DNA of 60,323 nt, filler included. It is 5 parts of 5 records of this genome, joined end to end, with 100 filler letters (N's around TTAATTAATTAA, not from the genome) between each part and the next. Parts side by side here need not be neighbours in the genome. Positions count along the whole stretch, not along the records: positions 46,034 to 52,314 come from DRR723986_28563; 4 more parts are not named here. One strand, given 5' to 3'. The notes below the pieces were generated by a model. That model searched no databases and was not told where the DNA came from. It saw nothing but the letters and a program-made list of their open reading frames with translations. Both the position numbers and the translations under genes were made by a program. Position 1 is the first letter of the stretch, and the number at the start of each line of letters is the position of its first letter. Shown here piece by piece: positions 40,451-58,037 of the stretch.

Positions 40451-40594
40451 GGCTCTTCCCCTTCTGCAGATCTGAAATCGTCAGCACCCTGCCATGCTGC
40501 ACCTGCAAAGGGAACGGGGAAATACGCGCGGGCGGAACCCTGCCTGTTTCCTGGGGCGTCCGACAAACCACTTGCACCAGCGAAAATGCAGGGC

Positions 40595-40623
40595 AAAAAA
40601 AAACGCCCGCGCGAAGCGGGCGT
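40595..40623 (-). terminator. Rho-independent terminator of a minus-strand transcript upstream of bdhA
   Basis: Minus strand: ACGCCCGC-TTCGC-GCGGGCGT followed by a long T-run. Confidence 0.8.
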
Positions 40624-40654
40624 AAAGTTATTGAGGCAGGTTTCATACAGGCAA

Positions 40655-40754: not shown

Positions 40755-40783
40755 CAGGTGTCTAGGAAACTAGGGGCACATCA
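40755..40783. mobile_element. Terminal inverted repeat of an IS3-family-like insertion sequence
   Basis: Reverse complement TGATGTGCCCCTAGTTTCCTAGACACCTG begins 5'-TG and resembles IS3-type ends; it sits at the contig edge and abuts a truncated gene. Confidence 0.6.
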
Positions 40784-41521: not shown

Positions 41522-41567
41522 CGCATGTTCGCCGAATGTTCTTTTAGTGTGGGGGCGAAATGCCATC

Positions 41568-42935
41568 TCACCCGAGCAAAACCCGTTTCACGCTATCCAC
41601 GCCCTGCAAAATGAGTTCAGCGTCGCCACGTGCCTCGACGTTCAGCCTCACAACCGGTTCGGTATTCGAGCTGCGCAGATTGAAGCGCCATTTGCCCATG
41701 TTGAAGCCCAGCCCATCCATTTCGTCGATGGATATTGCTTCGGGTTCAAATAATGCTCGGACTCTCGCGATGGCGGCCTTGGGGTCGTCTAGCGTGAAAT
41801 TGAGCTCCCCTGAAGAAGGAAACGCCGCTTTTCGATCCGCGATTAGATCCGCAAGCGGACCATGGCGGCTGACCAGTTCGGCCACGAGCAACCAGGGGAT
41901 CATGCCACTGTCGCAGTAGACGAAGTCGCGGAAATAGTGATGCGCTGACATTTCGCCACCGTAGACAGCATTTTCATCCCGCATGGCTTGTTTGATGAAG
42001 GCGTGACCAGTGCTCGTTTGAACAGCTCGCCCGCCAGCTTTCGCTACAAGGTCTTGCGTATTCCAAATGATCCGAGGATCGTGAATGATCGTCGAGCCTG
42101 GCTCTTTGGCAAGGAATGCCTCTGCGAGCAGACCGACGACATATTCGCCGTCGATGAAGGCTCCGGTGTGATCAAAGAAGAAGCAGCGGTCGAAATCGCC
42201 GTCCCATGCAACCCCGAAATCGGCGCCCGCAGCGCGAACGGCGTCTGCAGACGCGGGTCGGTTTTCTGATAGGAGCGGGTTTGGGATGCCTTTTGGAAAT
42301 GTACCATCTGGTTTGTGGAATAGACGTTCGAACACCAACGGAGTCCCAAGCTCTGTCAGTCGCGCTGCAATTGCATCAAACGTAGGTCCGGCAGTTCCAT
42401 GACCTGCATTCACGAGTATTGTCAGAGGCTTAAGCGCGGAGATATCAACAAACTGGCAAATGCGATCGACGTATGCTGCACGCGCCTCTCCCACGACGTT
42501 CCGGAACTTGCCGAGAGTGGTGCTTTTCTCGAATGCGTTTGCCTCGGCGAGCTCTTTGATACGCGCCAGGCCGCTGGCCAAGTTAAGCGGCGCCGATCCC
42601 GCCCGCACCATTTTCATGCCGTTGTAATCCATCGGATTGTGTGAGGCAGTCACGCAAATCCCGCCATCGGCCCCGAAATGGGTAGTCGCGAAATACATCT
42701 CCTCGGTGCCAGAGAGCCCAAGATTAAGTACTTCGCAACCTTGATCGGTCAGTCCTTGTGCGACTTTGCTTGCAAGTTCCTCTGAGGATGCTCGGACATC
42801 ACGTCCGAGAACAACCGTTTTTGCTTCAAGTGCAACCGCAAAGGCTGCGCCGATGCGGTAGGCGATGTTTTCGTCCAGATCGATGCCCAGGCGGCCACGG
42901 ATGTCGTAGGCTTTGAAGCAGGTCAGAGATGTCAT
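41568..42935 (-). CDS. manB: Phosphomannomutase
   Basis: FKAYDIRG, TASHNP, DGDFDR, GEMSAH, RSSNTEP. Confidence 0.95.
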   Translation of the reverse strand: MTSLTCFKAYDIRGRLGIDLDENIAYRIGAAFAVALEAKTVVLGRDVRASSEELASKVAQGLTDQGCEVLNLGLSGTEEMYFATTHFGADGGICVTASHNPMDYNGMKMVRAGSAPLNLASGLARIKELAEANAFEKSTTLGKFRNVVGEARAAYVDRICQFVDISALKPLTILVNAGHGTAGPTFDAIAARLTELGTPLVFERLFHKPDGTFPKGIPNPLLSENRPASADAVRAAGADFGVAWDGDFDRCFFFDHTGAFIDGEYVVGLLAEAFLAKEPGSTIIHDPRIIWNTQDLVAKAGGRAVQTSTGHAFIKQAMRDENAVYGGEMSAHHYFRDFVYCDSGMIPWLLVAELVSRHGPLADLIADRKAAFPSSGELNFTLDDPKAAIARVRALFEPEAISIDEMDGLGFNMGKWRFNLRSSNTEPVVRLNVEARGDAELILQGVDSVKRVLLG

Positions 42936-44377
42936 CCTTTAGCCCCTTGCCCACGTGCGTAGACATCTTCGTATCTAATGATGTCGTCCTCGCCGAGATA
43001 GCTGCCAGTCTGGACTTCGATTAGGGTGAGCGGCACCTTGCCGGGATTTTCCATGCGATGGACGGCGCCGAGCGGGATGTAGACGGACTGATTTTCCGAG
43101 ACGAGCTTGATGTCGTTATCGACGGTCACTTTGGCGGTGCCTCCGACGACGATCCAGTGCTCGGCGCGGTGGTGGTGGCTTTGCAGGGATAGCGCCGCGC
43201 CGGGGTGGACGACGATGCGCTTCACCTGAAAGCGCGGTCCGACGACGAGGCTTTCGTACCAGCCCCAGGGGCGGTAGTCGCGTGGGAGCGTTTCGGCCTG
43301 TGGGGCGGCTTTGGCCTTCAGCGCGGCGACGGCCTGTTTGACCTCTTGCGCGCGGTCCTTGTGGGCAACCAGCACGGCGTCGGGCATGGCGACCGCGATG
43401 ATGTCTTTGAGGCCAATGCCGACAAGCTGCTGTGCTTCGCTCGCTGCTTGTAAAAGCGTGTCGTGGCAATCAAGCGCACTCGCGGGACCAGCGGTGACGG
43501 TGCCAGTGTTGTCGGCCTCGGCTTCGCGCCAAACGGCCTGCCAATCGCCGAGGTCTGACCAGGCGCCCGCATAGGGGACAACAGTCAGGTTCGGCGCACG
43601 CTCCATCACAGCGTAGTCAATCGAGATTTCGGGGAGGTCGGCCCATGGCGCGGGGGCGAGGCGGGTGAAGGACAGGTCTTTTTCCGCCGCCTCAAAGGCC
43701 GCGCGTGTGGCTACCAGAACCTCGGGCGCGTGGGCAGCAAAGGCGTCAAGGATACTGGTCGTCGAGAAGAGGAAGATCCCCGCGTTCCACAGGTGCATCC
43801 CACCAGCCAGAAGCGCCTCGGCCTTGGCGAGATCGGGCTTTTCGACAAAGCTGCGAAGGGGTTGCGGCTTGGGGGCAAAGTCGGGCGTGGGGTTTGAAAG
43901 TTCAAGCCAGCCATAGCCCGTCTCAGCTCGATCTGGGCGGATGCCGAAGGTGACAAGCTGACCAGCGGACGCGGCAGGTGCGGCGGCCTGAACGGCGTCG
44001 CGAAAACGAGGGGCATCGGGGATCACATGGTCTGAGGGTGCCACCAACATCAGCGCACCAGTCGCGCGGGCCTCCAGCGCCAGGGCGGCGGCGCAGATCG
44101 CTGCGGCGGTATTCTTGGCGGAAGGCTCGATCAGGATGTCGGCGGGGGCAATGTCAAGCGGGGCAAGCTGTTCGATCACGATGAAACGGAAGTCGGCGGC
44201 GGTAACAATCGTGGGCGCGGCAAACCCCGTGCCAGACAAGCGACGCGCCGAGGCCTGATAGAGGCTTTCGTCGCCGGTCAGCTCGACGAACTGCTTGGGG
44301 TAGGACTTGCGCGACAAAGGCCAAAGCCGCGTGCCGGAGCCGCCGCAGAGGAGAACTGGGTGAATGAGGTTTGCCAT
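42932..44377 (-). CDS. manC: Mannose-1-phosphate guanylyltransferase / mannose-6-phosphate isomerase
   Basis: GGSGTRLWPLSR..PKQF, FVEKP, SIDYAVME, RPWG, C-terminal cupin HHHRAEHW. Confidence 0.95.
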   Translation of the reverse strand: MANLIHPVLLCGGSGTRLWPLSRKSYPKQFVELTGDESLYQASARRLSGTGFAAPTIVTAADFRFIVIEQLAPLDIAPADILIEPSAKNTAAAICAAALALEARATGALMLVAPSDHVIPDAPRFRDAVQAAAPAASAGQLVTFGIRPDRAETGYGWLELSNPTPDFAPKPQPLRSFVEKPDLAKAEALLAGGMHLWNAGIFLFSTTSILDAFAAHAPEVLVATRAAFEAAEKDLSFTRLAPAPWADLPEISIDYAVMERAPNLTVVPYAGAWSDLGDWQAVWREAEADNTGTVTAGPASALDCHDTLLQAASEAQQLVGIGLKDIIAVAMPDAVLVAHKDRAQEVKQAVAALKAKAAPQAETLPRDYRPWGWYESLVVGPRFQVKRIVVHPGAALSLQSHHHRAEHWIVVGGTAKVTVDNDIKLVSENQSVYIPLGAVHRMENPGKVPLTLIEVQTGSYLGEDDIIRYEDVYARGQGAKG

Positions 44378-44386
44378 AATAAACTC

Positions 44387-45346
44387 TTAACGCCTGAAGG
44401 TCTCGGAATTGGCCAGAAACCATTGGTAGGTTTCCGCAAGCCCCTGATCCAATCCGATCTGTGCCGACCAGCCCATCTGGGTCAGCCGCGAAACATTCAT
44501 CAGTTTGCGCGGGGTTCCGTCGGGTTTGGTCGGGTCGGTGACAATGCGCCCCTTAAAGCCTGTGATCACGGCGACCTTTCGTGCCAGCTCAAGGATCGAG
44601 ATGTCGATGCCAGTGCCGACGTTGATATGGCTCAGCATGGGTTGGGTGTTCGCCTCGTAGTCGGCTTTCGGCAGATCAAGCACGAAGAGCGAAGCGGAAG
44701 CCATATCATCCACATGCAGGAACTCGCGGCGTGGGGTGCCGGTGCCCCAGATCGTCACCTCTTCGGTTCCTGATTGCGCGGCCTCGTGAAAGCGGCGGAT
44801 CACGGCAGGCAGGACATGACTGTTCTCGGGGTGGAAGTTGTCGCCGGGGCCATAAAGGTTGGTTGGCATGACCGAGCGGTAATCGGTGCCGTGTTGGCGG
44901 TTATAGCTTTCGCAGAGCTTGATCCCAGCGATCTTGGCAATGGCATAGGGTTCGTTCGTCGGTTCCAGCACGCCGGTCAGGAGCGCATCCTCGCACATCG
45001 GCTGCGGCACGGCGCGGGGGTAGATGCAGGACGATCCAAGCTGCAAGAGCCGCGTGACGCCAGCGGCAAAAGCCTGATGGATGACATTCGCCTCAATCAT
45101 CAGGTTGTCGTAGATGAAGTCGGCGGGATAGCTGTTGTTTGCGAGGATTCCGCCGACCTTGGCAGCGGCAAGGATTACCACATCGGGGCGCTCGGCTTGC
45201 ATGAAGGCCCGTACAGCGGCCTGATCGGTCAGGTCCAGTTCCGCATGTGTGCGGGTGACGACGTTGGTTTCGCCGCGCGCTTGCAACTGCCGCAGGATCG
45301 CCCCTCCGACCATGCCACGGTGGCCTGCAAGGTATATCTTGCGCAT
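44387..45346 (-). CDS. fcl: GDP-L-fucose synthase
   Basis: [41 protein letters not shown]. Confidence 0.95.
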
Positions 45347-45350
45347 CGCC

Positions 45351-45933
45351 TTACCCCTCGATCGAAACGGGCAGGTCCAGCCCATGTTCGCGCAACAAGC
45401 GGGTGCGGCGCGCGTTTTGCAGGTCGTGGGCAACCATTTCGGCGCACATTTCCTGAACCGTGATCTCAGGCGTCCAGCCGAGCTTGGCCCTGGCCTTGGA
45501 GGGATCCCCAAGGAGCGTTTCGACCTCGGCGGGGCGGAAGTAGCGCGGGTCGATACGCACGATCACATCGCCAACCGAAAGCGCAGGCGCCGCATCGCCG
45601 TCAATCGCGGCGACAATGCCGACCTCGTCCAGCCCCTTGCCCTCAAAACGTATCGTGATGCCCAACTCGGCAGCGGACCATTCGATGAACTGACGCACGG
45701 AGTATTGCACGCCGGTGGCGATGACAAAATCGTCGGGTGTGTCTTGTTGCAGCATCATCCACTGCATGCGAACGTAATCCTTCGCGTGGCCCCAATCGCG
45801 AAGGGCGTCGATATTGCCCATGTAGAGGCAAGGCTCCAACCCCTGAGCGATATTGGCCAGACCGCGGGTGATTTTGCGAGTCACGAATGTCTCACCGCGA
45901 CGAGGGCTCTCGTGATTGAAGAGGATGCCGTTG
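45351..45933 (-). CDS. gmd: GDP-mannose 4,6-dehydratase (5'-partial)
   Basis: [34 protein letters not shown]. Confidence 0.95.
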
Positions 45934-46033
45934 NNNNNNNNNNNNNNNNNNNNNNNNNNNNNNNNNNNNNNNNNNNNTTAATTAATTAANNNNNNNNNNN
46001 NNNNNNNNNNNNNNNNNNNNNNNNNNNNNNNNN
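45934..46033. other. Artificial contig linker
   Basis: N-run with TTAATTAATTAA. Confidence 0.98.
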
Positions 46034-46061
46034 CACCGTGAACCAGTTTTGCGTGCGGATC
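46034..46061 (+). repeat. 28-bp direct repeat identical to the other contig end (52287-52314)
   Basis: CACCGTGAACCAGTTTTGCGTGCGGATC at both ends. Confidence 0.95.
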
Positions 46062-46087
46062 GCGTCCGCCATTCTACGCAAGATCAT
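46034..46087 (-). CDS. 5' end of a further conserved-leader paralogue (3'-partial; not in the ORF track)
   Basis: ATG at 46087 reads MILRRMADAIRTQNWFTV to the contig edge; purine-rich RBS upstream. Confidence 0.85.
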
Positions 46088-46111
46088 CGGCTCATTCCCC
46101 CATTTTCCTGA

Positions 46112-46879
46112 CTATTTAAATTTTGCTTCGTGGCGAGCTTCCATGGGCATCAGCGCCGCCCGGATGGTGGCACCCCAGATGATGTTGCCCAGATCATTAA
46201 AGTGTAGGTTATCTTCAACGAAGATGTCTGTCATGACCTTGCCGTCTGCATTAAGAAACGGGCTTGCCACATCCACATAAAATACCAATGGGTCATTATC
46301 GGCTATGGCTTTATACCCGGCATTAACATGCTGTGCCGCTAGCCAAACCGCTTCCCGCGAGACGCTTGGCTTGATAGACAAAACATAAATGCGGGTTTCA
46401 GGCAGCGCATCATGAATGCGCCCGATTATGGCCTTCAGGTCCCCTAAAATATCGTCACGGGTCAGCCCAAACTGAGTCAATGCAGTATCATTGTCCCCTT
46501 CGTAAATAAGGATCGCTCGCGGCTTATATGTCAGGGCGACGCGGTCCAGATAATGCAAAACATCACGCATAATAGAACCACCAAAGCCCCTTGGTATGAC
46601 CGTTAGTGGGGCCAGTGCCTTTATTGATTGTTCACTCCATCGGGCGATGCTGGAACTGCCGGTTAGCACAATGGCCCCTTCTGGCGGCGGGGAGAGCAGG
46701 TCTTGTTCCTCAAAACGCTTTATAGCATTTTCAAAACGCCTTGCGTCCGGATAATCCTGAGCGGCCAATGGGCCTGTTGCCAGCACCGCAAACAAAAGAG
46801 CAATGATAGTATGTATGCTGAAGGTGTAACCTCTCATCGTTTTAGTGGCTTTCTCATCTGCTGTGCGATGCAATATCAT
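46112..46879 (-). CDS. Secreted SGNH/GDSL hydrolase
   Basis: GSSS, RGFGGS, YEGDND, DNLH blocks; signal peptide from the Met at 46837; first residues MILHRTAD look like a leader relic. Confidence 0.85.
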   Translation of the reverse strand: MILHRTADEKATKTMRGYTFSIHTIIALLFAVLATGPLAAQDYPDARRFENAIKRFEEQDLLSPPPEGAIVLTGSSSIARWSEQSIKALAPLTVIPRGFGGSIMRDVLHYLDRVALTYKPRAILIYEGDNDTALTQFGLTRDDILGDLKAIIGRIHDALPETRIYVLSIKPSVSREAVWLAAQHVNAGYKAIADNDPLVFYVDVASPFLNADGKVMTDIFVEDNLHFNDLGNIIWGATIRAALMPMEARHEAKFK

Positions 46880-47412
46880 GGTGTTTCTCCCTCATTGGGG
46901 CAAAAGCTGCCACCGCAGCGCTCGGTCATGTAGGTTTCAACTTCCAACAGCCATGTGCCGCCTTCACGGCGCCATTTGGCGGTATAGCTGCCCGATGCAA
47001 AGCTGGCGGCTGAATGGCTTTCGCCGCCGTGCCATGTGCCGTATTCCATCGCGATTGGAAATGTGGATGAGGCCTGAACGCAAGCAGGGGTACGCACATA
47101 AATCGCCCGGCCCCGGCTTTCGCTGTCAGCACGCCATATATCAAGCTGTGCTTCGCGGCCAGTGTAAACATCGCTGTCGGTGCCGGTAATCAGCAGCACA
47201 TCTTCCGCGAGCACGGCCTCAATGGCCTCTATGTCCAGCGAGCGGATAGCGGCATTGAAAGCATCACGTTGACCGCGAATAGCGGCGACGTGCGCGCTGT
47301 CCCCAGTGTCGGTACAAACGGGCTTTTCATTTGCACTGACATGAAGTGAAACCGCGCTGTGTAAGGCGGCGCACACCAAGGTGGTGATCAGTCTTAAGCG
47401 ATGTAAAGTCAT
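46876..47412 (-). CDS. Secreted NTF2-like / SnoaL (DUF4440-type) protein
   Basis: Signal-like MTLHRLRLITTLVCAAL (ATG 47412), FN.AI..D, E.G.W, GSY.AKWRR.GG.W. Confidence 0.7.
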   Translation of the reverse strand: MTLHRLRLITTLVCAALHSAVSLHVSANEKPVCTDTGDSAHVAAIRGQRDAFNAAIRSLDIEAIEAVLAEDVLLITGTDSDVYTGREAQLDIWRADSESRGRAIYVRTPACVQASSTFPIAMEYGTWHGGESHSAASFASGSYTAKWRREGGTWLLEVETYMTERCGGSFCPNEGETP

Positions 47413-47434
47413 ACCAAAGTTGCTTTCATAGGGG

Positions 47435-47494
47435 TTAATATGCGTACTCAGACGCGGTGTGCACCAAGAGCTTACCAGAGCCTTCAACGGTCAC
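47435..47494 (-). pseudogene. Diverged duplicate of the PaaI gene 3' end (19 codons plus stop)
   Basis: VTVEGSGKLLVHTASEYAY* versus VTFEGSGKLVVHATSEYAY* at 48179-48238: 15/19 aa and 45/60 nt identical. Confidence 0.9.
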
Positions 47495-48051
47495 TGCAAA
47501 ATGCCTTCTGTTGGGCCGTTATTGTTGGTGGTGGATGCAACCGGTTCAGGCGCAAAAAACGGGTATAATTCCCATACGAGCGGCACATCTGTTCGCTCTT
47601 CAAGCCCTTCATCTATGGCGTTACGGACGTCTTCGGTATAGGCAAGTCGAACTTGTTGCCAATATTGCCGGCCACCCGGCGTTTTAAGATACATCAATGG
47701 TATGCCCAGCGAGCTTCGATAAATTTGCTCGTCAATAAGATCATCGTTGTGCAAAAACACGACCCGTTCTGCGATATTGATGCCGCGGTGCATTAAGTAT
47801 CCGAATTGAACCTGCTCAACGGGTGTAGCGCCCTCATAATCTTGAAAGCATGCCTTGATAGCTTCGAAGGTCTCAGCGTCCCGCGTGAGATACTCATACA
47901 ATGTGTTTGTTACATCGAACGCCTCGTGTTGACGCTCGGCGCGCGCCAAGTCGTGATCGGCACGCTGTTGGATATAGATCGCAATCAAAGATATCAGGAT
48001 CGCAATAATACCCGTGATTTCAGCGAGATTTGTAAGTTTTTTGAGGTTCAT
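47491..48051 (-). CDS. Hypothetical protein with N-terminal TM anchor
   Basis: 186-aa ORF co-oriented with the array; LAEITGIIAILISLIAIYIQ TM; TPGG..YW motif. Confidence 0.7.
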   Translation of the reverse strand: MNLKKLTNLAEITGIIAILISLIAIYIQQRADHDLARAERQHEAFDVTNTLYEYLTRDAETFEAIKACFQDYEGATPVEQVQFGYLMHRGINIAERVVFLHNDDLIDEQIYRSSLGIPLMYLKTPGGRQYWQQVRLAYTEDVRNAIDEGLEERTDVPLVWELYPFFAPEPVASTTNNNGPTEGILQ

Positions 48052-48178
48052 ACTATGTCTGCCTGATCAATATTGTTTACTGGCCGCCCGTTGTACTAAG
48101 CAACAAGGCTGGAAAAGCAACAAACACGAGCGTGGAAGCAATGACACCATTGAAGGCCTTGCGCAGCTGCTTTTTACG

Positions 48179-48628
48179 TTAATATGCATATTCGGATGTG
48201 GCGTGCACCACCAATTTGCCGGAGCCCTCAAAGGTTACTTTGGTCTCGCCGTAAGCAAGCGTTTTGCCCATTTTCAGCACCCTCGCCTCAATGATCATAT
48301 CATCGCCGATGGCCGCGCGCAGAAACTGGTTGTTTTGGCTCACGGTGCCTTTGCTGGGGCGCGGGTATGTGTGAATGGCCATGGACATAACCGTATCCAC
48401 CGCTGACATCAGCGCCTGCCCGCACATGGCGCCGGAGAAAAACTGCTGTGAAGGGTCTTGGCGCAGCCGGGCTTTTATCCGGCCTTCTTCCACCTCGAGA
48501 AACTCTAACCCCTGCTGTTTGACCCACGGGGCGAAAACAAGGGCGTAAAGCTCGCTAGCATTCTCCATGGTGTAAGGACCATAGTTGGAGATTGTGGTGA
48601 TTAGGTCTTCTGATTGGGTCGGCTTCAT
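48179..48628 (-). CDS. PaaI-family hotdog-fold thioesterase
   Basis: FAPW, G..CGQALM..VDT, T.S...QFLR, ARVLK.GK.LAYGE. Confidence 0.8.
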   Translation of the reverse strand: MKPTQSEDLITTISNYGPYTMENASELYALVFAPWVKQQGLEFLEVEEGRIKARLRQDPSQQFFSGAMCGQALMSAVDTVMSMAIHTYPRPSKGTVSQNNQFLRAAIGDDMIIEARVLKMGKTLAYGETKVTFEGSGKLVVHATSEYAY

Positions 48629-49392
48629 TCGGCGCTCTCCGCATGCTGGATATTGAGCATTGCATCCAGCTGTTCATGCACTGCTTTGGTTTGTTCCACC
48701 CATGACTTAATCCCTACCAGGTTCACCACGGCGTCGTAGGCCTCCAGATTGTAGGCAATGGCATTCAGCGCTGATGGGTCTTTTGCCAATCCTGGTCCAT
48801 CGCATGTCTGGGCCAAATCATATTCCGTGCGCTTAGGGTCGCCTGCGAGCGGAACAATCACAGGTACTGTCTGAATGAGTTTTGGATAAAAACGCGCGAG
48901 GTCAACCGCAGTTCTGCTTACGGATTCAATAATGTATGTTAGGGCCTCTTGCCGCTGAGTAAGTTTAGCAAGACTACCGACCAAGCGGCTATTGCGTATG
49001 ATCCCGGTCCGGCCGGCATCGCGAAGCGTGATCATGGAAGGTAGACTGGTTGGCAGCACGGCCGTGATATGCGATGTGCCAAGAGCTTTACACTCATCTT
49101 GCGTTAAAGGACGCTGTTCTGTCCTGCCAAATAAGACATCGGCGGCGGATTCCATGTCGGTAAAATACTTTAGCCGAAAACTGAGTGTCCGTTTTGTAAT
49201 TTTCTCCATCTCAACAATATCTTGATGCAGCGCTTGCAGAAAAACGGCTTCATCGGCCCGGTCAATACGGGCTTGGTTCCATTCGTTGACCTGAAGGCCA
49301 AGGAAAATACCAATTACAACAATCAGTATTTCGATGATCACGATGAACCAGTTTTGGGTGCGGATGCCGTCCGCCAAGCGGCGCAGGATCAT
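48625..49392 (-). CDS. Conserved-leader paralogue (DUF6090-like single-TM protein)
   Basis: MILRRLADGIRTQNWFIVIIEILIVVIGIFLGLQVNEWN; family name recalled, not verified. Confidence 0.8.
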   Translation of the reverse strand: MILRRLADGIRTQNWFIVIIEILIVVIGIFLGLQVNEWNQARIDRADEAVFLQALHQDIVEMEKITKRTLSFRLKYFTDMESAADVLFGRTEQRPLTQDECKALGTSHITAVLPTSLPSMITLRDAGRTGIIRNSRLVGSLAKLTQRQEALTYIIESVSRTAVDLARFYPKLIQTVPVIVPLAGDPKRTEYDLAQTCDGPGLAKDPSALNAIAYNLEAYDAVVNLVGIKSWVEQTKAVHEQLDAMLNIQHAESAE

Positions 49393-50144
49393 GGCGTTTC
49401 TCCAGCTGATTCAGGTTCCCCAACGGCACTTAGGAAATCATTGGTGGTGTTAATAAAGTTATTCATCAGGTTAACTTGATAGAGTGTCCCGTTTTCCCAG
49501 CGATTGAAGATTTTACGAAACGAAACATCTGTGCAGGCCTCATTCATGCTCACCGTCAAGACCAGCGGTGATGTATTCCCCGCAAGCGAATTTTGTGTTT
49601 TATCTGGATCTCGCCGCCCGTAATCCAGAAATGGATGGTTATCGTCAAACTGGTCTTCCATCCGCTGCTGCCACTCGCTGCCGAAATGGATGATCGTGTT
49701 AAGCCTTCTGTCATATTCAGCATAGAGCTGTCGCAGGTGCGCTGGTTGCTGCTCGAGTAATCGCTCTGAGCTATTGAGGGTTTCTGCGGCGCTATTTTCA
49801 AGCCGGGCAGCAAATGTAGTATTTATGTAGGTTAGCGCAACATCCATTCGCTCCCGAGCATCTTGATCATTCCTGCATTCACGCAGGTCTTCGATGGTGT
49901 TTTCAACTGACGTAATAATAGGTTCTATGGTGTTCCGTGACCGGTTGGTCGTCGCGATATTTCGTTTCGCTTCTTCGACCATACGGTCATGCGCTTCGAT
50001 ATATGCCTGATGATCCTGCCGCGTCTCGTTCCAGTTCGCGACCTCGATACCGATATAAACCCCGACAACGACGATGATGAAATCAAGCCCAACCGCGAAC
50101 CAGTTTTGGTCTTTCACGTGTTTTGTAAGTGAGCGCAGGATCAT
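49389..50144 (-). CDS. Conserved-leader paralogue (DUF6090-like single-TM protein)
   Basis: MILRSLTKHVKDQNWFAVGLDFIIVVVGVYIGIEVANWN. Confidence 0.8.
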   Translation of the reverse strand: MILRSLTKHVKDQNWFAVGLDFIIVVVGVYIGIEVANWNETRQDHQAYIEAHDRMVEEAKRNIATTNRSRNTIEPIITSVENTIEDLRECRNDQDARERMDVALTYINTTFAARLENSAAETLNSSERLLEQQPAHLRQLYAEYDRRLNTIIHFGSEWQQRMEDQFDDNHPFLDYGRRDPDKTQNSLAGNTSPLVLTVSMNEACTDVSFRKIFNRWENGTLYQVNLMNNFINTTNDFLSAVGEPESAGETP

Positions 50145-50881
50145 TCTGTGTCTCCTCGATCATCAATAAGTCGAATAATCTCGCGGGCATGCTCTGCGAG
50201 CTCGCGAGTATAGGTTATGTCCTGCAAAGTTGATATTTGCCTGCCCATCAGGATGTTATCCAGCACCCGGTCTTCTGATAGCTCTTTTCTGGAGTTTCCA
50301 ATTTTGGATGGGGCGATTTTGCCATCTGCAATACCCGCTGTCGCAAATACGGAAGCGTAAGCGAGGTGCTCAATATAGTAAGGGTGCATTGTGTTATCAC
50401 GAAATCTGAGCGAATCCTGTTGTACCCGGTTTAGTTGGGATAACTTCTCCTCCCACTGCTCAACTGCGTCGATAAGTGCCGGTGAATTTGTTTTGGTATA
50501 CAGGTCAGACGATAGAGCGGCATCAAGCGAATTTCGCTTTGTGTAGACACCGGTCACCCCAACAGATTGAAAAAACAATTTATCGATTTCCAAATCTGAC
50601 GCCTCGATATCTGGATCACTGAGGAGCGAGCGCAGTTTCGCAATGTCAGCGAACTGAGCCTCATTCTTCTCTATCGTGGATTCATAGCGCTCCAGATTTT
50701 CCGTCATTTCAATCTTAAGTGCCTGCATTTGTCGTTCAAAGGTCGCAAGTTCGCTGCGTTTTTCGGCCATAGAAGAAATCTGGAATGCGATCAATATTCC
50801 GACAACAACGATGAAGAAATCAAGGAACACCGCAAACCAGTTCTGCTCGCGTATCGCATCCGCTAGTCGGCGCAGGATCAT
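50141..50881 (-). CDS. Conserved-leader paralogue (DUF6090-like single-TM protein)
   Basis: MILRRLADAIREQNWFAVFLDFFIVVVGILIAFQI. Confidence 0.8.
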   Translation of the reverse strand: MILRRLADAIREQNWFAVFLDFFIVVVGILIAFQISSMAEKRSELATFERQMQALKIEMTENLERYESTIEKNEAQFADIAKLRSLLSDPDIEASDLEIDKLFFQSVGVTGVYTKRNSLDAALSSDLYTKTNSPALIDAVEQWEEKLSQLNRVQQDSLRFRDNTMHPYYIEHLAYASVFATAGIADGKIAPSKIGNSRKELSEDRVLDNILMGRQISTLQDITYTRELAEHAREIIRLIDDRGDTE

Positions 50882-51582
50882 TATTTTTCCTCGTTTTCAA
50901 ACACAGCTTGATTGCTGTCGTCGAAGTCGAAAGCAGGCACGCAGGTTCTACCGCTCAACGCCAATGCCTCAAGGTTATCCGCCAAACACTTTGCCCAACC
51001 TGCATTGGTTAAAGACTCGCGCTTCCAGGACAATAGAAGGTCCATATAGTTTTCAAACTCGGGTTTCAAACGAGAGCCATCTGCGGTGTAAAATACCGAC
51101 GGGTCTAACTTTAAGCGTGGCAGAATTTCCATTTCCGCAAAGCGGACGTAACGGATGGCTTTTCGCCCAACACCCTCACGTTCGGAATAGTAAAAGGCGA
51201 GCTCAAACATTAGTTTCGGATGCACCAATTCACCCAGTTTCATGTTCAAAAGGGCATCCCATGTCTTGCTAGGCGGCGTATCGGACCCCGGCGTGCGAAA
51301 ATGATACGGGGCAAGGCGCTTGCCCTCATCAAATGCCTTTTGCCAGGCGTCCAGGCCCGCTTGAATCTGGCTGGTATACTGAACTTCATAAGCAATCGAT
51401 GTTCTCAGATCTTCACGCAAGGTTTCCAGCACTTGTTTGGTTCGCGCCTTCTGCTGCCGATCTTCATTCCATTCGGAAACCTGAAGGCCAAGGAAAATAC
51501 CGATCACGACAATTAGGATTTCGATAATGACCGTGAACCAGTTTTGCCCGCGGAGCCCCTCCGCTATGCGCTTGATAATCAT
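50881..51582 (-). CDS. Conserved-leader paralogue (DUF6090-like single-TM protein)
   Basis: MIIKRIAEGLRGQNWFTVIIEILIVVIGIFLGLQVSEWN. Confidence 0.8.
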   Translation of the reverse strand: MIIKRIAEGLRGQNWFTVIIEILIVVIGIFLGLQVSEWNEDRQQKARTKQVLETLREDLRTSIAYEVQYTSQIQAGLDAWQKAFDEGKRLAPYHFRTPGSDTPPSKTWDALLNMKLGELVHPKLMFELAFYYSEREGVGRKAIRYVRFAEMEILPRLKLDPSVFYTADGSRLKPEFENYMDLLLSWKRESLTNAGWAKCLADNLEALALSGRTCVPAFDFDDSNQAVFENEEK

Positions 51583-52314
51583 GGCGCTAACTCCGTCAAT
51601 AAGGCCTGCGTTAACACCTGTGTTTCAACATATTCTTGGCGCAACTTCTTGTTGAATATCGAAACATTGCTTTGCCAAACCTCCCACTTAAGAAGCCATT
51701 GTTGTAACTCTATGTCCTTGCAGGCCTGCTGCATCGGTACATTCAAAACCAGCGGGTAGCGAGGCACCTCATAATCAATCCCAAAGAAAGTGTCTTGCAA
51801 AGTTTCGGCCTGTTTAATGGCAAGTGTAGGTTTGTCCGCAGCCCATGTGTTTAACGAGTCAGGCTCAAATCGTTGTAAAATGCTGCTCGCCAATTCAAGG
51901 AAATATAGCGCGTCGGCAAACTGCTGACGCGCCGCGTTTGTTTGCTTAGCCAACAAAACCGGGTTTGAAGTTAATTCTGTTAATGCCGTTGCACGCAGCT
52001 CAACGCCCCGCGTGCCCCTCACTTGGGCTATACCGGCATTCACTGCATTGATGGCATCTGTACCTTCAGCGCAGGCTAGAAGCGCATCAAGACCCGCGCG
52101 TCCAATGGCAAGATTTCTTTCAATAACGATGGTTTCAGCATCAATCGTGGCTAAGTTTTCACGGGCCTCAACATTAAGCCGCTCTATCGCTTGGTGGTAA
52201 ATACGGTCGTTTGCGCGATCATCGTTCCAGTTAGAAACCTGAATACCAATGAACACACCGAGAACCACGATGAAAATTTCCACGATCACCGTGAACCAGT
52301 TTTGCGTGCGGATC
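51579..52314 (-). CDS. Conserved-leader paralogue (5'-partial)
   Basis: Reads IRTQNWFTVIVEIFIVVLGVFIGIQVSNWN from the contig edge. Confidence 0.8.
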
Positions 52315-52414
52315 NNNNNNNNNNNNNNNNNNNNNNNNNNNNNNNNNNNNNNNNNNNNTTAATTAATTAANNNNNNNNNNNNNNNNNNNNNNNNNNNNNN
52401 NNNNNNNNNNNNNN
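52315..52414. other. Artificial contig linker
   Basis: N-run with TTAATTAATTAA. Confidence 0.98.
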
Positions 52415-52455
52415 TGCCTCTTCCGGTTACTGCAATAATAAGTGTCTCATAACAT

Positions 52456-52498
52456 CTGTCATTTGAGTTTCATCTAACTGACATCTTGCGTTTACGCT
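52456..52498 (+). promoter_or_regulatory. Tandem PhoB boxes with a putative -10 element
   Basis: CTGTCAT-ttga-GTTTCAT-ctaa-CTGACAT (11-bp period, 52456-52484) matches CTGTCAT-N4-CTGTCAT; TACGCT at 52493-52498. Confidence 0.75.
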
Positions 52499-52574
52499 GA
52501 GCCAATAGTGGGGCCGAGACGAGTGGATCGATCCATTCGGAACTTCTCTCAGACTTTCACCTGAAGGTATCAAA

Positions 52575-54071
52575 ATGAAAAAGTCTCTCCTGCTTTCGGC
52601 AGCCGTGGCACTATTGGGCTCTGCAGCCTCCGCCGAAACGCTGCGTATTCCACATGAATTGGGGTATGGCGGATCCGAGTCGATCGACCCGATTTCGCCT
52701 CAGCGTTTTTACGAGGCTATCCAGAACGTGTACTCGCGTTTGGTACGTCAGGGCGATGATGGTCGCCCTTCTGCCGATCTGGCGCTGAGCTGGGAACCAA
52801 CACCAGATGCCAAAGAGTGGACCTTTAAGCTGCGCTCTGATGTGACGTTCCACAACGGCAATGCCTTTACGGCTGAAGACGTGGCATTTTCGCTGATGCG
52901 CACCCAGTCCGAGACAATCGACAGCCCCACCAAAGGCGTGATGGAGGTGATCGATCACGTTGAAGTCGTCGACGCGCTGACCGCCAAAGTGGTTCTGAAA
53001 CAAACCCACGCCGACTTCCCGTTGTTGGTCATGGATTATCGGATCAAGATGCTGGACGCCGAGACCTGCGGCAATGATCTGGATGCGCTGTGCGAAAACG
53101 GCATCGGCACCGGTCCCTATGCGATGGTGAACTATGATCCGTTGGGTACTACGACGCTGAAGCGTTTTGACAACTACTATGGCGGCACTGTTGGTACCGA
53201 AAACATGGAATTGATCGCAATTGCAGATCAGGACGCCCGTGTTGCAGCCCTTCAAGCGGGTCAGATCGACTTCATCTATGCGCTGTCAGCAGAGCAGGTT
53301 CCGCTGTTTGCCAACAACCCGAATTTTACGGTTCAATCGGTTCCGACTGGCCGCTGGGTTGGTCTGGTTATGAACACCCAAGAAGCGCCGTTCAACGACC
53401 CACGTGTGCGCAAGGCCATCCGCATGACGGCCGATCGTGATGCATTGGGTAAACTGGTTTATGGCAAGGGTGGCTATATCACCTCATGTGACCATCCTGT
53501 CTGGTCCGGCGATCAATACCGCACTGAAATCGAATGTGACCGCGACATCGAAGGCGCCAAGGCCTTGCTGGCCGAAGCCGGATATGCCGACGGCCTCACG
53601 GTTGAGCTGTTCGTTTCGGATATCTCTGAGGGCGCCGTGAAAATGGCCGAGGTCCTGCAGAACCAGGCCAAAGACGCGGGTATCACCATCGAACTGGTTC
53701 CTGCCCCTTCAGATGGGTACTGGGGTGACGTTTGGATGAAAGAGCCATTCTTTGCCACCGGCTGGTCCCAGCGCCCAACCGATCAGATCCTCAATGAGGC
53801 CTATCGGTCAACCGCAACCTGGAACGAAACCGCGTGGAACAGCGCCGAGTTTGACGCCAAGCTGGACGCTGCGCGCGGCGAGCTGGATTTTGACAAGCGC
53901 AAAGCGCTGTATGGTGAGCTGCAGAATGAACTGTGGGAAACAGGCGGATCCTTCATCCCTGTCCACCTGAACACAGTCCGCGCCTTCAGCGCCAAGCTGT
54001 CGGGCATCCAGCCGGTCGAAGACTTCTCGATCCGGTACGAAGACGTTGTGAAATCGGCGTCCGGTTCCTGA
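52575..54071 (+). CDS. ABC transporter substrate-binding protein, family 5 (Dpp/Opp/Nik-like)
   Basis: Signal peptide, LA.SW...D..WTFKLR.DV.FHNG..FTAEDV, GTGPY, PF.DPRVRKA. Confidence 0.92.
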   Translation: MKKSLLLSAAVALLGSAASAETLRIPHELGYGGSESIDPISPQRFYEAIQNVYSRLVRQGDDGRPSADLALSWEPTPDAKEWTFKLRSDVTFHNGNAFTAEDVAFSLMRTQSETIDSPTKGVMEVIDHVEVVDALTAKVVLKQTHADFPLLVMDYRIKMLDAETCGNDLDALCENGIGTGPYAMVNYDPLGTTTLKRFDNYYGGTVGTENMELIAIADQDARVAALQAGQIDFIYALSAEQVPLFANNPNFTVQSVPTGRWVGLVMNTQEAPFNDPRVRKAIRMTADRDALGKLVYGKGGYITSCDHPVWSGDQYRTEIECDRDIEGAKALLAEAGYADGLTVELFVSDISEGAVKMAEVLQNQAKDAGITIELVPAPSDGYWGDVWMKEPFFATGWSQRPTDQILNEAYRSTATWNETAWNSAEFDAKLDAARGELDFDKRKALYGELQNELWETGGSFIPVHLNTVRAFSAKLSGIQPVEDFSIRYEDVVKSASGS

Positions 54072-54101
54072 TCCTGATCGGGATTTCCGACATATCTCCC
54101 C

Positions 54102-54133
54102 ACGTGGCCTGTTTTGCAAAAATCAGGCCACGT
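54102..54133 (+). other. Intergenic hairpin after the SBP gene (possible mRNA stabiliser or attenuator)
   Basis: ACGTGGCCTG...CAGGCCACGT inverted repeat. Confidence 0.55.
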
Positions 54134-54164
54134 TGCCTTTTGAATTTCTGAACAGGGCCCACTC

Positions 54165-55115
54165 ATGCCAACCCTCATCCTGCGTCGCTTTGGTTTTGCG
54201 GCGTTCACCGTTGCATTTGTCTCGATTATCATGTTTCTCGCCGTCGAGGCGCTGCCCGGCAACGTGTGTACCTCATTCCTGCAACGGTTCGCACAAGGCC
54301 CACGGCTTGAGCGCTGTATTGAACAACAGGGCCTGAATCGCCCGGCCGTGGTGCGTTATGGCGAATGGGTGGCCGGGGCCGCACAGGGAGATTTCGGCTA
54401 TTCCCTGAAGAAACGCAAACCTATCAACGAGTTGATCTGGCAGCGGTTCCGCAATACCGCCTTGTTGGGCGGGTTTGCTGCGTTGCTGGCGATTCCGCTG
54501 GCGATCTTTTTGGGGATTGCAGCGGGGGTTCGGCGAGATCGGCCGTTAGACCTGTCGTTGTCAGGTGCGGCAATGCTGGCGATGACAGTGCCTGAATTCG
54601 TGACAGCCACGGCGCTGATCTATGTCTTTGCCATCACGCTGCAGTGGTTTCCGGCTGTAACTATCATCTCGCCCGGGGCGGGGTTGATGCAGATGCTGCC
54701 TAATATCGTCCTGCCCGTGATCGTCCTGAGCGCGGTTTTGATCGCCCATATCATGCGAATGATGCGCGCAAGCGTGATTGATGTGATGACCAGCGATTAC
54801 GTGCAGATGGCGCGCCTGAAAGGGGTGCCAGAACGTCAAATCATCTGGAAACACGTTGTCCCTAACGCGATGATTCCGGCCCTAAATGTGATTGCTCTGA
54901 CCATCGCCTGGTTGTTGGCCGGGGTCGTGGTGGTCGAAAAAGTCTTTAATTACCCCGGCCTTGGTACCTTGATGATCCAGGCCATTTTCGACCGCGACCT
55001 GCCAATGGTGCAGGCTATCGCACTGATTTTCTCGGTTATTTACGTGGGCGTGAACTTGCTGGCTGATCTTGCCGCGGTGGCCTTGGATCCCCGTTTGCGC
55101 CGCAAAGGACATTGA
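54165..55115 (+). CDS. ABC transporter permease (DppB-like)
   Basis: GDFGYS, DYVQMARLKG EAA loop, VVEKVFNYPGLG, RDLP. Confidence 0.92.
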   Translation: MPTLILRRFGFAAFTVAFVSIIMFLAVEALPGNVCTSFLQRFAQGPRLERCIEQQGLNRPAVVRYGEWVAGAAQGDFGYSLKKRKPINELIWQRFRNTALLGGFAALLAIPLAIFLGIAAGVRRDRPLDLSLSGAAMLAMTVPEFVTATALIYVFAITLQWFPAVTIISPGAGLMQMLPNIVLPVIVLSAVLIAHIMRMMRASVIDVMTSDYVQMARLKGVPERQIIWKHVVPNAMIPALNVIALTIAWLLAGVVVVEKVFNYPGLGTLMIQAIFDRDLPMVQAIALIFSVIYVGVNLLADLAAVALDPRLRRKGH

Positions 55116-55116
55116 T

Positions 55117-55959
55117 ATGCTGAGCCTCATTCAAAACGTGGCCGCGCGCCCTTCGGGAGCCATTGGCCTGATCCTGACCCTGTTTCATGTGGGCATGGCG
55201 TTGTTGGCACCTTTTCTGGCCCCTTATGATCCTACCATGCAGGATGCGGATGCAATTCTGCGGGCTCCTTCAATGACCCATTGGATGGGCACCGATACGC
55301 TGGGTCGGGATGTGTTTTCCCGTGTGATCTATGGGGGGAGGTTGGCAATTTCCGTGACTTTTGCGGCGGCTGTTATTGCAACGCTCTGGGGCGGGTTCGC
55401 AGGTATCTTTTTTGGCACTGTTGGTGGGCGCGTAGATGAATACTCTATGCGGATTGTTGATGCTTTTTTGTCGATGCCATGGCTGTTGTTTCTGTTGCTG
55501 ATCATCTCAATTGGTGGCGCAGGGCCGGTGACTATCATCCCGACACTTGGGTTTTTCTATGGCGTTGCGGTTTTGCGCGTGGTGCGTGGGGCAGCGATGC
55601 AAGTGGCGGCGCGGGATTTTGTCACCGCAGCCAAAGCACGGGGAGAAAAACTCTGGCCGATCATCACCCGCGAGATGTTCCCGAACTTGTCCGACATCCT
55701 GCTGGTTGAAGGTGCAATGCGGTGGAGTTGGATGCTGTTGGCGTTCTCGTCACTGTCGTTTCTTGGGTTTGGCGCTACGCCGCCCACGCCTGATTGGGGG
55801 CTGATGGTTGCACAAGAGCGCGGACTTTTGTCGACGGCTCCGTGGGGCGTGTTCTGGCCCTGTCTGGCGCTGTCGTCGTTGATCATCGGGATCAATCTGT
55901 TGGCTGATGCTGTGGGCAAGGCGCTTGGCCTTGATCGTGCAACCGCCATTGCTGTGTGA
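55117..55959 (+). CDS. ABC transporter permease (DppC-like)
   Basis: HWMGTD.LGRD, FV.AAKARG, LSFLG.G..PPTPDWG. Confidence 0.92.
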   Translation: MLSLIQNVAARPSGAIGLILTLFHVGMALLAPFLAPYDPTMQDADAILRAPSMTHWMGTDTLGRDVFSRVIYGGRLAISVTFAAAVIATLWGGFAGIFFGTVGGRVDEYSMRIVDAFLSMPWLLFLLLIISIGGAGPVTIIPTLGFFYGVAVLRVVRGAAMQVAARDFVTAAKARGEKLWPIITREMFPNLSDILLVEGAMRWSWMLLAFSSLSFLGFGATPPTPDWGLMVAQERGLLSTAPWGVFWPCLALSSLIIGINLLADAVGKALGLDRATAIAV

Positions 55960-55969
55960 GGGATGTGAT

Positions 55970-58018
55970 ATGACAAAATCATTGATCAAAATCGAGGACC
56001 TGTCACTGGGGTTCGTTGCCAAAGGCGGTCGCGAAGCCCCCATTCTGCGCGGTGTATCGCTGGAACTGGCGGCTGGGGAAACCCTTGGCATTGTGGGCGA
56101 AAGCGGATCGGGGAAATCGACTGTGGCGTTGGCGATGATGGGGTATCTGAAACCCGGCCTGGCCGTGTTTCGTGGGCGCGCCGTGTTTGATGGCCACGAC
56201 ATGTTTGCCTTGCCAGAAAGAGAGCGTGCCAAATTGCGCGGCGGGGCGATTGCATTGATCCCGCAAAACGCTGGACAAGCGCTGACGCCAACGCTGAAGA
56301 TTGGTCAGCAAATTGACGAGGCCCTGAGGCTGCATTCTGATCTAGATGCGACGGGACGTGCAGACCGCGTGATTGAATTGCTGGCCCGTGTGCGCCTGCC
56401 TAGCCCCGCAGATATGGCGCAGCGGTATCCGCACGAATTGTCCGGTGGGCAACAACAACGCGCGGCAGTTGCCATGGCGCTGGCGGGCAATGCCAAAGCG
56501 TTATTGCTGGATGAGCCGACCACGGGATTGGATGTGACAACTCAGGCGCATATTCTCGATTTCCTACGCACATTGGCCCAAGAAATGGGCGTGGCGATGA
56601 TCTACGTCAGTCACGACATGGGCGTGATCGCCCGTGTCGCGGATCGTGTCGCGGTGATGTATGCGGGGCAATTGGCTGAAGAAGGGCCCACGCGTGATGT
56701 TTTGCGTGCGCCAAAGCACCCTTACACGCGCGGTCTGCTGGCCTCGATCCCCCGATTAGGCGATCCCGGAATTCCTGCCTCAATGCCGGGCACACCGCCT
56801 GCAGTTGGATCCGCATTGACGCAATGTGCCTTTGCAGACCGCTGTGCATTGGTGCGTGATGATTGTCGGCAACGCGTGCCGGATCTGCAAAAGATGGGGT
56901 CGTCTCAGGCCCGCTGTCTGCATTCCGACAAACCAGATCGGCCACGCCCGCAAACCCACCGGGAACCAGATGTGCAAGACGCGTCGGCGCTGCAGCTTCG
57001 GGATGTGGCGATCAGCTACAGCAAGCCAGGTCTGCTGGACCGGGTGTTCAAACGCCCACATAAAACGCCGACCGTTGAGCGTGTGGACTTTGACCTCAAA
57101 AAGGGCGAGACTCTTGGGTTAGTTGGCGAAAGTGGCTCTGGTAAATCCACCATTCTGCGGGCCATTGCCGGTCTAGTCGGAACTCAGGCGGGATCGGTGA
57201 CGCTGGGCGATGGCCAAGATTTGAGGTCATCAGTCTCCAGAAGAGATCGCGAAACCCTGCGGCGGGTGCAGATGATTTTTCAGAACGCGGATGCATCCTT
57301 GAACCCGCGCCAGACCATAGGAGAAATCCTTGGAGCGCCGTTGCGGTTGTATCACGGCGTGAAAGGGTCAGAGGCGCAGGCACGGACCAAATCGCTTCTG
57401 GAAGCCGTACGCCTGCCTGCGCGTTACTCGTCCCGCTTTCCTGGACAGTTATCAGGTGGCGAAAAGCAGCGTGTTGGTGTGGCCCGGGCCTTTGCGGCCA
57501 ATCCAGAAGTAACCCTATGTGATGAAGTGACCTCGGCTCTGGATGTGTCGGTACAGGCTGCTGCACTGGCATTGTTGGCTCGATTGCAAAAAGAAAACGG
57601 ATCCTCCTACATTTTTGTCAGTCATGATCTTGCGGTGGTACGGGCCGTGTCGGATCGGGTGGCTGTGCTGTATCAGGGACGGATCTGTGAAATCGGCCCC
57701 GCTGCCGAGGTCTATGCTCCCCCCTATCATCCCTATACGCAAACGCTGATGGGGGCTGTGCTAGAGCCTGATCCAGATGCAACGCTTGCATTGCTGGCAG
57801 ATGACGTGACTGAAAAATCCCCTCCGGCGACGGGTTGCCCGTTCAAGCGGCGGTGTCCTCGCCGTGTTGGATCGATCTGTGACACCACTGTGCCGCCTCG
57901 GCGCCAGATGACGGCTGAGCATGTGATCCACTGCCATTTGGAAACACGAGACCTGATGCCTCAACCCGATGTGACAAACCGTACACATGTTTTGGCGAAG
58001 CCAGAACCGGCGTGCTGA
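55970..58018 (+). CDS. Fused double ABC ATPase (DppD/F-like)
   Basis: Two GESGSGKS Walker A, two LSGG signatures, two HPYT plus Cys-rich C-terminal modules. Confidence 0.93.
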   Translation: MTKSLIKIEDLSLGFVAKGGREAPILRGVSLELAAGETLGIVGESGSGKSTVALAMMGYLKPGLAVFRGRAVFDGHDMFALPERERAKLRGGAIALIPQNAGQALTPTLKIGQQIDEALRLHSDLDATGRADRVIELLARVRLPSPADMAQRYPHELSGGQQQRAAVAMALAGNAKALLLDEPTTGLDVTTQAHILDFLRTLAQEMGVAMIYVSHDMGVIARVADRVAVMYAGQLAEEGPTRDVLRAPKHPYTRGLLASIPRLGDPGIPASMPGTPPAVGSALTQCAFADRCALVRDDCRQRVPDLQKMGSSQARCLHSDKPDRPRPQTHREPDVQDASALQLRDVAISYSKPGLLDRVFKRPHKTPTVERVDFDLKKGETLGLVGESGSGKSTILRAIAGLVGTQAGSVTLGDGQDLRSSVSRRDRETLRRVQMIFQNADASLNPRQTIGEILGAPLRLYHGVKGSEAQARTKSLLEAVRLPARYSSRFPGQLSGGEKQRVGVARAFAANPEVTLCDEVTSALDVSVQAAALALLARLQKENGSSYIFVSHDLAVVRAVSDRVAVLYQGRICEIGPAAEVYAPPYHPYTQTLMGAVLEPDPDATLALLADDVTEKSPPATGCPFKRRCPRRVGSICDTTVPPRRQMTAEHVIHCHLETRDLMPQPDVTNRTHVLAKPEPAC

Positions 58019-58037
58019 TAGCGTAAGAAGAAGATTG

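Follow-up and report, generated by a model that had tools for sequence, protein, structure and literature searches.

Tandem arrays of diverged, membrane-anchored paralogues that share a conserved coding leader in marine Proteobacteria

The orphan toxin/immunity modules of CdiA-CT and Rhs loci keep a conserved upstream coding piece as a homology handle, and the Erp lipoproteins of Borrelia and the Vsp/Vlp lipoproteins of Mycoplasma belong to multigene families in which a conserved 5' leader precedes a variable mature part. We describe here an array of leader-bearing genes at positions 46034-52314 of a 60,323-nt stretch of DNA, designated the window, in which five assembly contigs are joined. 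The array region is exactly contig 4, taken whole (6,281 bp, GC 0.50), which carries nine genes and one truncated gene head, all on the minus strand. Five of the genes (g1 to g5), and the head of a sixth (g6), belong to a family with a common leader of about 45 residues. We consider it likely that these genes are diverged paralogues that undergo birth and death with ordinary homologous recombination at the leader, and that contig 4 holds part of a longer array whose genes are transcribed together. The family and the behavior of its arrays appear undescribed.

As in CdiA-CT and Rhs loci, a conserved coding segment stands before variable C-terminal modules and offers a place for module swaps. 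The units described here differ in being complete genes with their own starts, apparently linked in translation, with no large master gene, and scans of the window proteins against Pfam, NCBIfam, and PADLOC found no toxin or immunity signature. NCBIfam gave no meaningful match to these proteins, and the PADLOC anti-phage models gave marginal matches only (E 0.002-0.008, 13-15 bits). The Erp and Vsp/Vlp families likewise consist of tandem or clustered paralogues, with 5' ends homogenized by recombination while the rest diverges. Their products are lipoproteins on the surface of host-associated bacteria, made from individual promoters and subject to phase variation, whereas the proteins described here would be anchored in the inner membrane of free-living marine Proteobacteria and are encoded in rows of overlapping open reading frames (ORFs), with bodies that are under purifying selection. 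Integron cassette arrays resemble this locus in having co-oriented small genes whose content varies between relatives. Here, in contrast, the units are paralogues of one family, the ORFs overlap by 1-4 nt, and there are no attC-like hairpins or Rfam matches and no integrase among the 25 commonest families at array flanks. A search of contig 4 against Rfam gave nothing at E<=1, and inverted repeats associated with its gene junctions were not found either. The first-pass annotation of this DNA reported no attC site, transposase, or integrase on the contig, and this is borne out, with no IntI or other integrase among the contig's genes, yet it says little because the contig is only 6.3 kb long and cut at both ends.

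The same annotation suggested a resemblance of the leader to DUF6090 (PF19578), an uncharacterized single-pass membrane family. The N-terminal transmembrane (TM) region of our proteins does align with the start of that profile, which upholds a distant relationship, but every hit falls below the gathering threshold of 23.5 bits (g1 22.9, g5 17.6, g4 17.0, and g2 21.2 bits) and g3 has none. The g2 match runs over positions 2-141 of the 182 in the profile; those of g1, g4, and g5 are limited to the TM segment, from 1-40 to 1-49. PF19578 is precomputed in a minority of the homologues, and the third-nearest cluster in the ESM Atlas is named DUF6090, with PF19578 in 14% of its members. By these scores the family would be a distant, sub-threshold relative of DUF6090 rather than a filed member, its proteobacterial branch having a basic head of its own that ends in QNWF. 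In the one literature library searched, no paper names DUF6090 or PF19578.

The leader family on contig 4 and in other genomes

The gene order on contig 4 is g5, g4, g3, g2, g1, a thioesterase, a TM protein, a DUF4440/SnoaL protein, an SGNH hydrolase, and the head of g6. The leader-family genes are g5 (51579-52314, with about the first 8 codons lost at the contig end), g4 (50881-51582, 233 aa), g3 (50141-50881, 246 aa), g2 (49389-50144, 251 aa), and g1 (48625-49392, 255 aa); the first 18 codons of g6 lie at 46034-46087, where the other contig end cuts the gene. Amino acid identity among the five paralogues is 0.52 over leader columns and 0.13 over body columns, and ten leader columns are invariant (Q13, N14, W15, F16, V18, I24, V25, V26, G28, and R42). 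The five ORFs match the leader hidden Markov model (HMM) at positions 1-36 to 1-46, and at the DNA level the leader recurs at a spacing of 701-758 nt (repeat families D1-D4), far from chance. The five or six co-oriented, one-strand genes of the first-pass annotation can accordingly be counted as five full genes and the head of a sixth.

Starts and stops of consecutive genes overlap by 1-4 nt, including those of g1 with the thioesterase gene and of the DUF4440 gene with the SGNH hydrolase gene, and we infer from these overlaps a translationally coupled operon. Comparisons were made across 80 sources, namely contig 4 and 79 related genome loci, most of which are short-read metagenome bins, with no long-read or isolate strain pair among them. 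The closest readable locus to the window's array is L084, a 93-kb metagenome contig. A block that matches the window at 93% continues in L084 into a full family gene (12506-13291), and g6 is therefore a real sixth leader gene rather than a relic.

The leader HMM identified 392 leader-bearing ORFs across the 80 sources. Two or more copies are present in 64 of these, nearly always co-oriented and abutting, and the largest arrays have 22, 19, 16, and 16 copies in loci of about 14-21 kb, the 22 lying in a single 20.7-kb locus. A wider search with a profile of the five paralogues found 10,142 cluster representatives at E<=1e-3, of which 3,215 reach E<=1e-10. Individual genomes contain 39, 29, 12, 12, and 7 matches. 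Named hosts are marine, and comprise the Alphaproteobacteria Robiginitomaculum, Henriciella, Hellea, Hyphomonas, Maricaulis, Hyphobacterium, and Parvularcula and the Gammaproteobacteria Marinicella, Kangiella, Congregibacter, and Wenzhouxiangella. With some 10,000 sequence clusters, up to 39 genes in one 2.8-Mb genome, and no named function, the family is an extensive and so far unexplored component of the cell envelope in marine Alpha- and Gammaproteobacteria.

Full-length proteins have a median of 251 aa, with 5th and 95th percentiles of 235 and 265 aa. After removal of residues 1-48, BLASTP clustering at E<=1e-3 and at least 50% coverage placed 369 of 384 bodies in one component, including those of g1, g2, g3, and g5. 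The g4 body falls in a component of two members; its predicted element order is the same as that of g1, and g4 has 15 full-length orthologues at 45-77% identity. Best matches to the bodies alone are 59% for g1, 86% for g2, 61% for g3, 40% for g4, and 58% for g5, and full-length orthologues of g1 are found from 62% identity downwards. Between orthologues the bodies are under purifying selection, with a median dN/dS of 0.20 (range 0.05-0.96, n=40). The bodies are homologous, conserved from orthologue to orthologue and highly diverged between paralogues; they are full-length members of one family, and not the unrelated modules that their dissimilarity had first suggested. The first-pass annotation had itself listed ordinary full-length paralogues as an outcome that would count against its proposal.

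The AlphaFold2 model of g1 (pLDDT 93.3) has a helix at residues 2-12, a 73-residue helix at 15-87 that forms the TM segment and a stalk, a helical bundle, and a beta-hairpin at 173-197; the model of g4 (pLDDT 79) has its elements in the same order. The protein plan is probably a basic, cytoplasmic head of 16 residues, a single TM helix with a GxxxG-like motif and an acidic residue that is conserved, and a helical bundle of about 200 residues, probably periplasmic, in which two cysteines are conserved, C101 and C197 in the subfamily of g1 and C199 and C214 in that of g4. The basic head argues for a cytoplasmic N terminus, and the cysteine pairs for a periplasmic body. Four-helix-bundle periplasmic sensors (PilJ, NarQ, McpN, and MCP2201) similarly have an N-terminal TM helix leading into a periplasmic bundle and align with VIA-align Z scores of 6.5-7.7, but the proteins described here have no second TM helix and no cytoplasmic signaling domain, and since designed helical bundles score better (Z 11.2), the match to sensor domains is generic. 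The wide VIA-align search returned generic helical bundles only. Foldseek found nothing in PDB at E<=1e-3, its weak rows being V-ATPase stalks and ClyA-type toxins. Prediction of a g1 homodimer gave a score of 0.02, in a run made without controls and without a family alignment.

The 41%-GC genome that is nearest to contig 1 of the window has, at G001:C2:25598-26772 (L080, L081), a pair of neighboring ORFs of 248-249 aa that resemble the family weakly. They match from profile position 21, with the TM segment and body present and the basic head missing.

Leader and body in related arrays

Within arrays, megablast aligns leader DNA at 82-99% identity over 80-135 nt between paralogues whose bodies cannot be aligned. 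Codon choice gives a second measure. Where two paralogues of one array have the same residue, they have the same codon at a frequency of 0.595 in the leader and 0.385 in the body, against 0.452 for a control, in which the same residue is compared at non-homologous leader positions, and 0.375 expected from codon usage. The corresponding figures between unrelated genomes are 0.449, 0.338, 0.372, and 0.330. Codon sharing in the body is near expectation, and its synonymous sites are therefore saturated, while those of the leader are not; within arrays, the leader shows about double the excess seen between unrelated genomes.

We collected 87 reciprocal-best orthologue pairs with complete leaders, of which 39 have bodies with an identity of 0.80 or more. 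The identity of the leader, taken as the first 132 nt, trails that of the body by more than 10 points in 14 of these 39, compared with 1, 0, and 0 of the 39 for three control windows placed in the body, and in 20 of the 39 a paralogue from the same array has a leader nearer to the query than that of the orthologue. Eighteen such pairs, picked by us from this list, have their best identity changepoint at nt 66-213, and in 15 of the 18 it falls at or before nt 160, in agreement with the expectation in the first-pass annotation that breakpoints would lie in the leader.

Gene content points the same way. Two Hyphomonas assemblies (L056 and L057, 91-97% identical over the region) differ by three indels, two of which are one unit long with ends that overlap in leader homology. 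L019 and L066 can be aligned across the first gene and the leader that follows it, beyond which they diverge, and L012 and L026 contain the same pieces in different order. Leader and body have separate histories, and arrays of related organisms differ by whole units. Among the nearest relatives of the window's array (L084, L083, and a contig of sequencing run X1) both content and order vary, the opposite of the stability that had been named as evidence against shuffling.

Unit-body DNA is also 88-93% identical between L011 and L037 (Hyphococcus and a bin labeled 'Gammaproteobacteria') and between L015 and L019/L066 (Terricaulis and Parvularculaceae). Such identity, between bins labeled as different classes or orders, suggests that units were transferred horizontally or that array contigs were assigned to the wrong bins. 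L030 and L031, bins of a single study, are 100% identical over 6,559 nt, but upstream of position 9232 they are unrelated. That position is 2 nt short of the first leader gene, and at it either recombination has taken place or the assembler has made a join at the edge of the array.

For the window's own lineage, the order in L084 is a g5-like gene (52% aa identity), a family gene, an exported gene, g4 (75%), the thioesterase, DUF4440, and SGNH hydrolase genes, and four family genes; g3-g2-g1 and the TM gene are missing. The DNA is 75% identical in g4 and 86% in the thioesterase gene. A relic copy of the 3' end of the thioesterase (PaaI) gene, 62 nt long, lies at 47434-47495, directly after the stop of the TM gene, and is 76% identical to 48178-48239. 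From this relic through the DUF4440 gene, the SGNH hydrolase gene, and the sixth head, the window is 93% identical to L084:11102-12559. Small shares of contig 4, 0.12 and 0.06, are present in just two sequencing runs, X1 and X2 (Logan contigs). Record 1 of X1, a 3.1-kb contig, has g4, the thioesterase gene, and the DUF4440 gene adjacent, with g3 and the TM gene missing. Record 7 of X2, a 17.8-kb contig, has an orthologue of g2 (94.5% nt identity) and, spaced as units are, three more leaders. Over 95 nt (49277-49371) one of these is identical to the leader of g1, with nothing beyond it at a floor of 85%. L083 and L084 have three unit types in common, in different order. Across the 79 genome loci, g2 stands beside g1 in L001 only, at 40% and 55% identity.

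Explanations for the arrays

Our preferred explanation would account for these observations as follows. Contig 4 would be a piece of a longer co-transcribed tandem array that continues past g6. General homologous recombination, by unequal crossing-over and gene conversion, would act at the leader of about 130 nt, since the leader is the sole nucleotide similarity between units; it would delete, duplicate, and reorder whole units and swap leaders between bodies, and a dedicated recombinase would be unnecessary. Other genes embedded in the arrays would ride along, some of those in relatives starting with a leader head. Through the conserved anchor the paralogues might all dock to one partner in the membrane, or to one another, the bodies giving differing binding specificities. 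This last step is the weakest of the explanation, because fold searches gave only generic helical bundles. Recombination at the leader is seen in the relatives, and in the window its action is inferred. Nothing in the data requires more than general homologous recombination. If so, the arrays show clearly, in nature, how a conserved coding segment can direct recombination toward the gain, loss, and reordering of whole protein modules, each of which remains under purifying selection.

Several observations weigh against this explanation. The window's own leaders share longest words of just 8-23 nt, apart from a 28-nt word at the contig ends, and this weak homogenization means that leader recombination in this particular genome is evidenced only indirectly. 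The indels that separate the window from L084 and X1, of g3-g2-g1 and of the TM gene, have gene junctions or the PaaI relic at their edges rather than two leaders, so that the proposal of a leader serving both as membrane anchor and as recombination site, which fits the orthologue pairs, the changepoints, and the L056/L057 indels, does not extend to these. Identity to L084 steps at 47487-47495, from at most 86% upstream to 93% downstream, and the relic lies there, placing that crossover outside any leader. The third L056/L057 indel is a 476-nt internal deletion that begins just past a leader. Conservation of leader nucleotides may in part reflect selection that acts on the mRNA, and not conversion, because leader codon identity is raised between unrelated genomes too (0.449 against 0.372), and selection for intact genes alone could put surviving breakpoints at unit boundaries. 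In short-read bins, mis-joins at repeated leaders could mimic both mosaics and shuffled order. Finally, the proposed function has no named homologue behind it, and the fold matches are to generic bundles.

A stronger form of the same idea, which we hold to be rather improbable, is that the leader nucleotide sequence is itself kept similar, within genomes and between them, as a portable pair of homology arms, with RecA moving, deleting, or importing anything that lies between two leaders, be it a family body or a foreign exported enzyme with a retained leader head. If true, this would make the array a recombinase-free analogue of a cassette array, with imports from other marine bacteria.

Plain tandem duplication and divergence would give recombination at the leader no special role: the leader would be retained as a needed anchor, and the mosaics would be artefacts of metagenome assembly. 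The homology of the bodies and the purifying selection on them are as expected from such a history, as are the short words shared by the window's leaders and the codon identity raised between unrelated genomes, and most of the comparison loci are contigs of metagenome-assembled genomes (MAGs). We nevertheless regard it as unlikely. It does not predict leaders far more diverged than their bodies in 14 of 39 pairs when the body controls give 1, 0, and 0, leaders nearer to a same-array paralogue in 20 of 39, leader DNA up to 99% identical beside unalignable bodies, or unit-sized indels with leader-overlapping ends in L056/L057. Mis-joins by an assembler, moreover, need exact repeats at least as long as the k-mer, and these are missing in most leaders.

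A dedicated cassette system, in which the leader's nucleotide sequence is preserved as a recombination site through which modules and unrelated cargo are captured, swapped, or excised, seems to us quite unlikely. It would explain why codons at homologous leader positions are conserved even between unrelated genomes, and why L083 and L084 have the same unit types in different order. It could also explain exported proteins inside the arrays of relatives that are unrelated to the family and carry a leader head: L083:1899-2609, which matches leader positions 1-19; a beta-propeller, L053:10741-11994 (E 0.008); and a protein at L012:9976 (E 0.0013). Such chimeras are few, however, with 2 at E<0.01 among 989 ORFs outside the family. 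The bodies form one family, the absence of attC-like elements and Rfam matches has been noted above, and gene overlaps of 1-4 nt leave no room for sites. A conserved recombinase had been anticipated at array ends, but there is none among the 25 commonest of 135 families represented by 128 ORFs that flank arrays of at least three members. In the window itself, local DNA alignment found no leader relic at the cargo junctions at a score of 30 or more, and no cargo gene there has a demonstrable leader, which leaves the idea that cargo is captured through the leader without a case on this contig.

It is hardly credible that contig 4 closes into a 6.25-kb circle, or represents a tandem repeat that has collapsed, with the sixth head being the missing head of g5, as the exact 28-nt terminal overlap and the in-frame, full-length g5 produced by joining the ends might suggest, given that the 93% block of L084 runs into a different family gene at 12506-13291 with the g5-like gene about 4 kb upstream, that contig 4 has no replication or mobilization gene, and that related arrays sit in chromosomes of 3.07-3.93 Mb.

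Cargo genes, array flanks, and assembly

The four genes of contig 4 outside the leader family had been described as interspersed among the leader genes. They form instead a single block between g1 and g6, and are not scattered among g1-g5. The first is a hotdog-fold thioesterase (4HBT/PaaI-like, 48179-48628), whose start overlaps the stop of g1 (ATGA) and which is 83% identical in amino acid sequence to L084:10723-11151. It is followed by an N-terminally anchored, helical TM protein (47491-48051), by an exported DUF4440/SnoaL protein of the NTF2 fold (46876-47487, with ATG at 47412 the likely start; 89% aa identity to L084), and by an SGNH/GDSL hydrolase (46112-46879; 96% aa identity to L084), which has a signal-peptide-like start at M15 (46837). 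Pfam supports the original identification of three of these, as PaaI-like, NTF2-like, and SGNH proteins, and the TM protein remains without a Pfam match. Relic fragments had been claimed at the junctions. The 62-nt PaaI relic is one, and the only clear one on contig 4; no leader relic accompanies it. The MILHR start of the SGNH hydrolase ORF was considered as a leader remnant and rejected, its match having E=4.

The TM protein represents a second family that recurs beside arrays and often inside them, with 22 ORFs in 17 loci and a sister cluster of 6 ORFs in 6 loci. No homology to the leader family was detectable by hhalign (probability 7.9%, over the TM helix only). The ORF L063:6082-7005 joins a member of this second family to a DUF4440 domain, and in the window the corresponding genes are separate and adjacent (46876-48051), which suggests that the two form a functional pair.

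Weak leader-like starts were also seen in non-family genes of relatives, at L047:8290-9267 (metallo-beta-lactamase fold, E 5) and L052:7314-8180 (E 0.35). Unrelated exported proteins in arrays, including a weak case at L084:9315-10004, begin with 5-19 leader-like codons and then continue with a signal peptide of their own; of the five at L083, L084, L053, L047, and L052, those in L083 and L053 alone match the leader significantly.

The window consists of contigs at 1-27122, 27223-40654, 40755-45933, 46034-52314, and 52415-60323, separated by four assembly linkers of the form N44-TTAATTAATTAA-N44, where TTAATTAATTAA is a six-frame stop spacer. Those that adjoin contig 4 are at 45934-46033 and 52315-52414, neither with a strand. 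Contig 1 has a GC content of 0.41 and is 98% identical to G001, the nearest genome compared, in which no DNA match was found to contigs 2, 4, and 5 (GC 0.50-0.56), contig 3 being outside the search. The assembly is therefore a mixture of at least two organisms. Neighboring contigs are for that reason uninformative about the context of the array, and G001, having no DNA match to contig 4, cannot be used as a close-strain comparison.

Both termini of contig 4 end inside a leader, in one exact 28-nt word (52287-52314, identical to 46034-46061, no strand assigned). The repeated leader breaks short-read assemblies and may mis-join them, which calls for caution in reading such regions of MAGs; contig 4 is itself a broken contig of this kind in a mixed assembly. 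Over the core of the g2 leader (50024-50233), summed contig depth in two metagenome runs is 197 and 859, compared with about 20 and about 12 elsewhere. This core has loose ends on both sides, and about 56 nt of it are common, at 85% identity or more, to many other contigs of the runs.

The commonest families at array flanks are tetratricopeptide repeat (TPR) proteins (5), alpha/beta hydrolases (4), short-chain dehydrogenases/reductases (3), and SnoaL_2 (3). A further anchored family consists of TPR proteins of 640-743 aa with the N-terminal anchor ELKRRNVFRV..., found beside or inside arrays in 14 loci (among them L045, L005, L007, and L079). Three such genes stand in tandem at L045:13942-20314, with overlaps of 4 nt.

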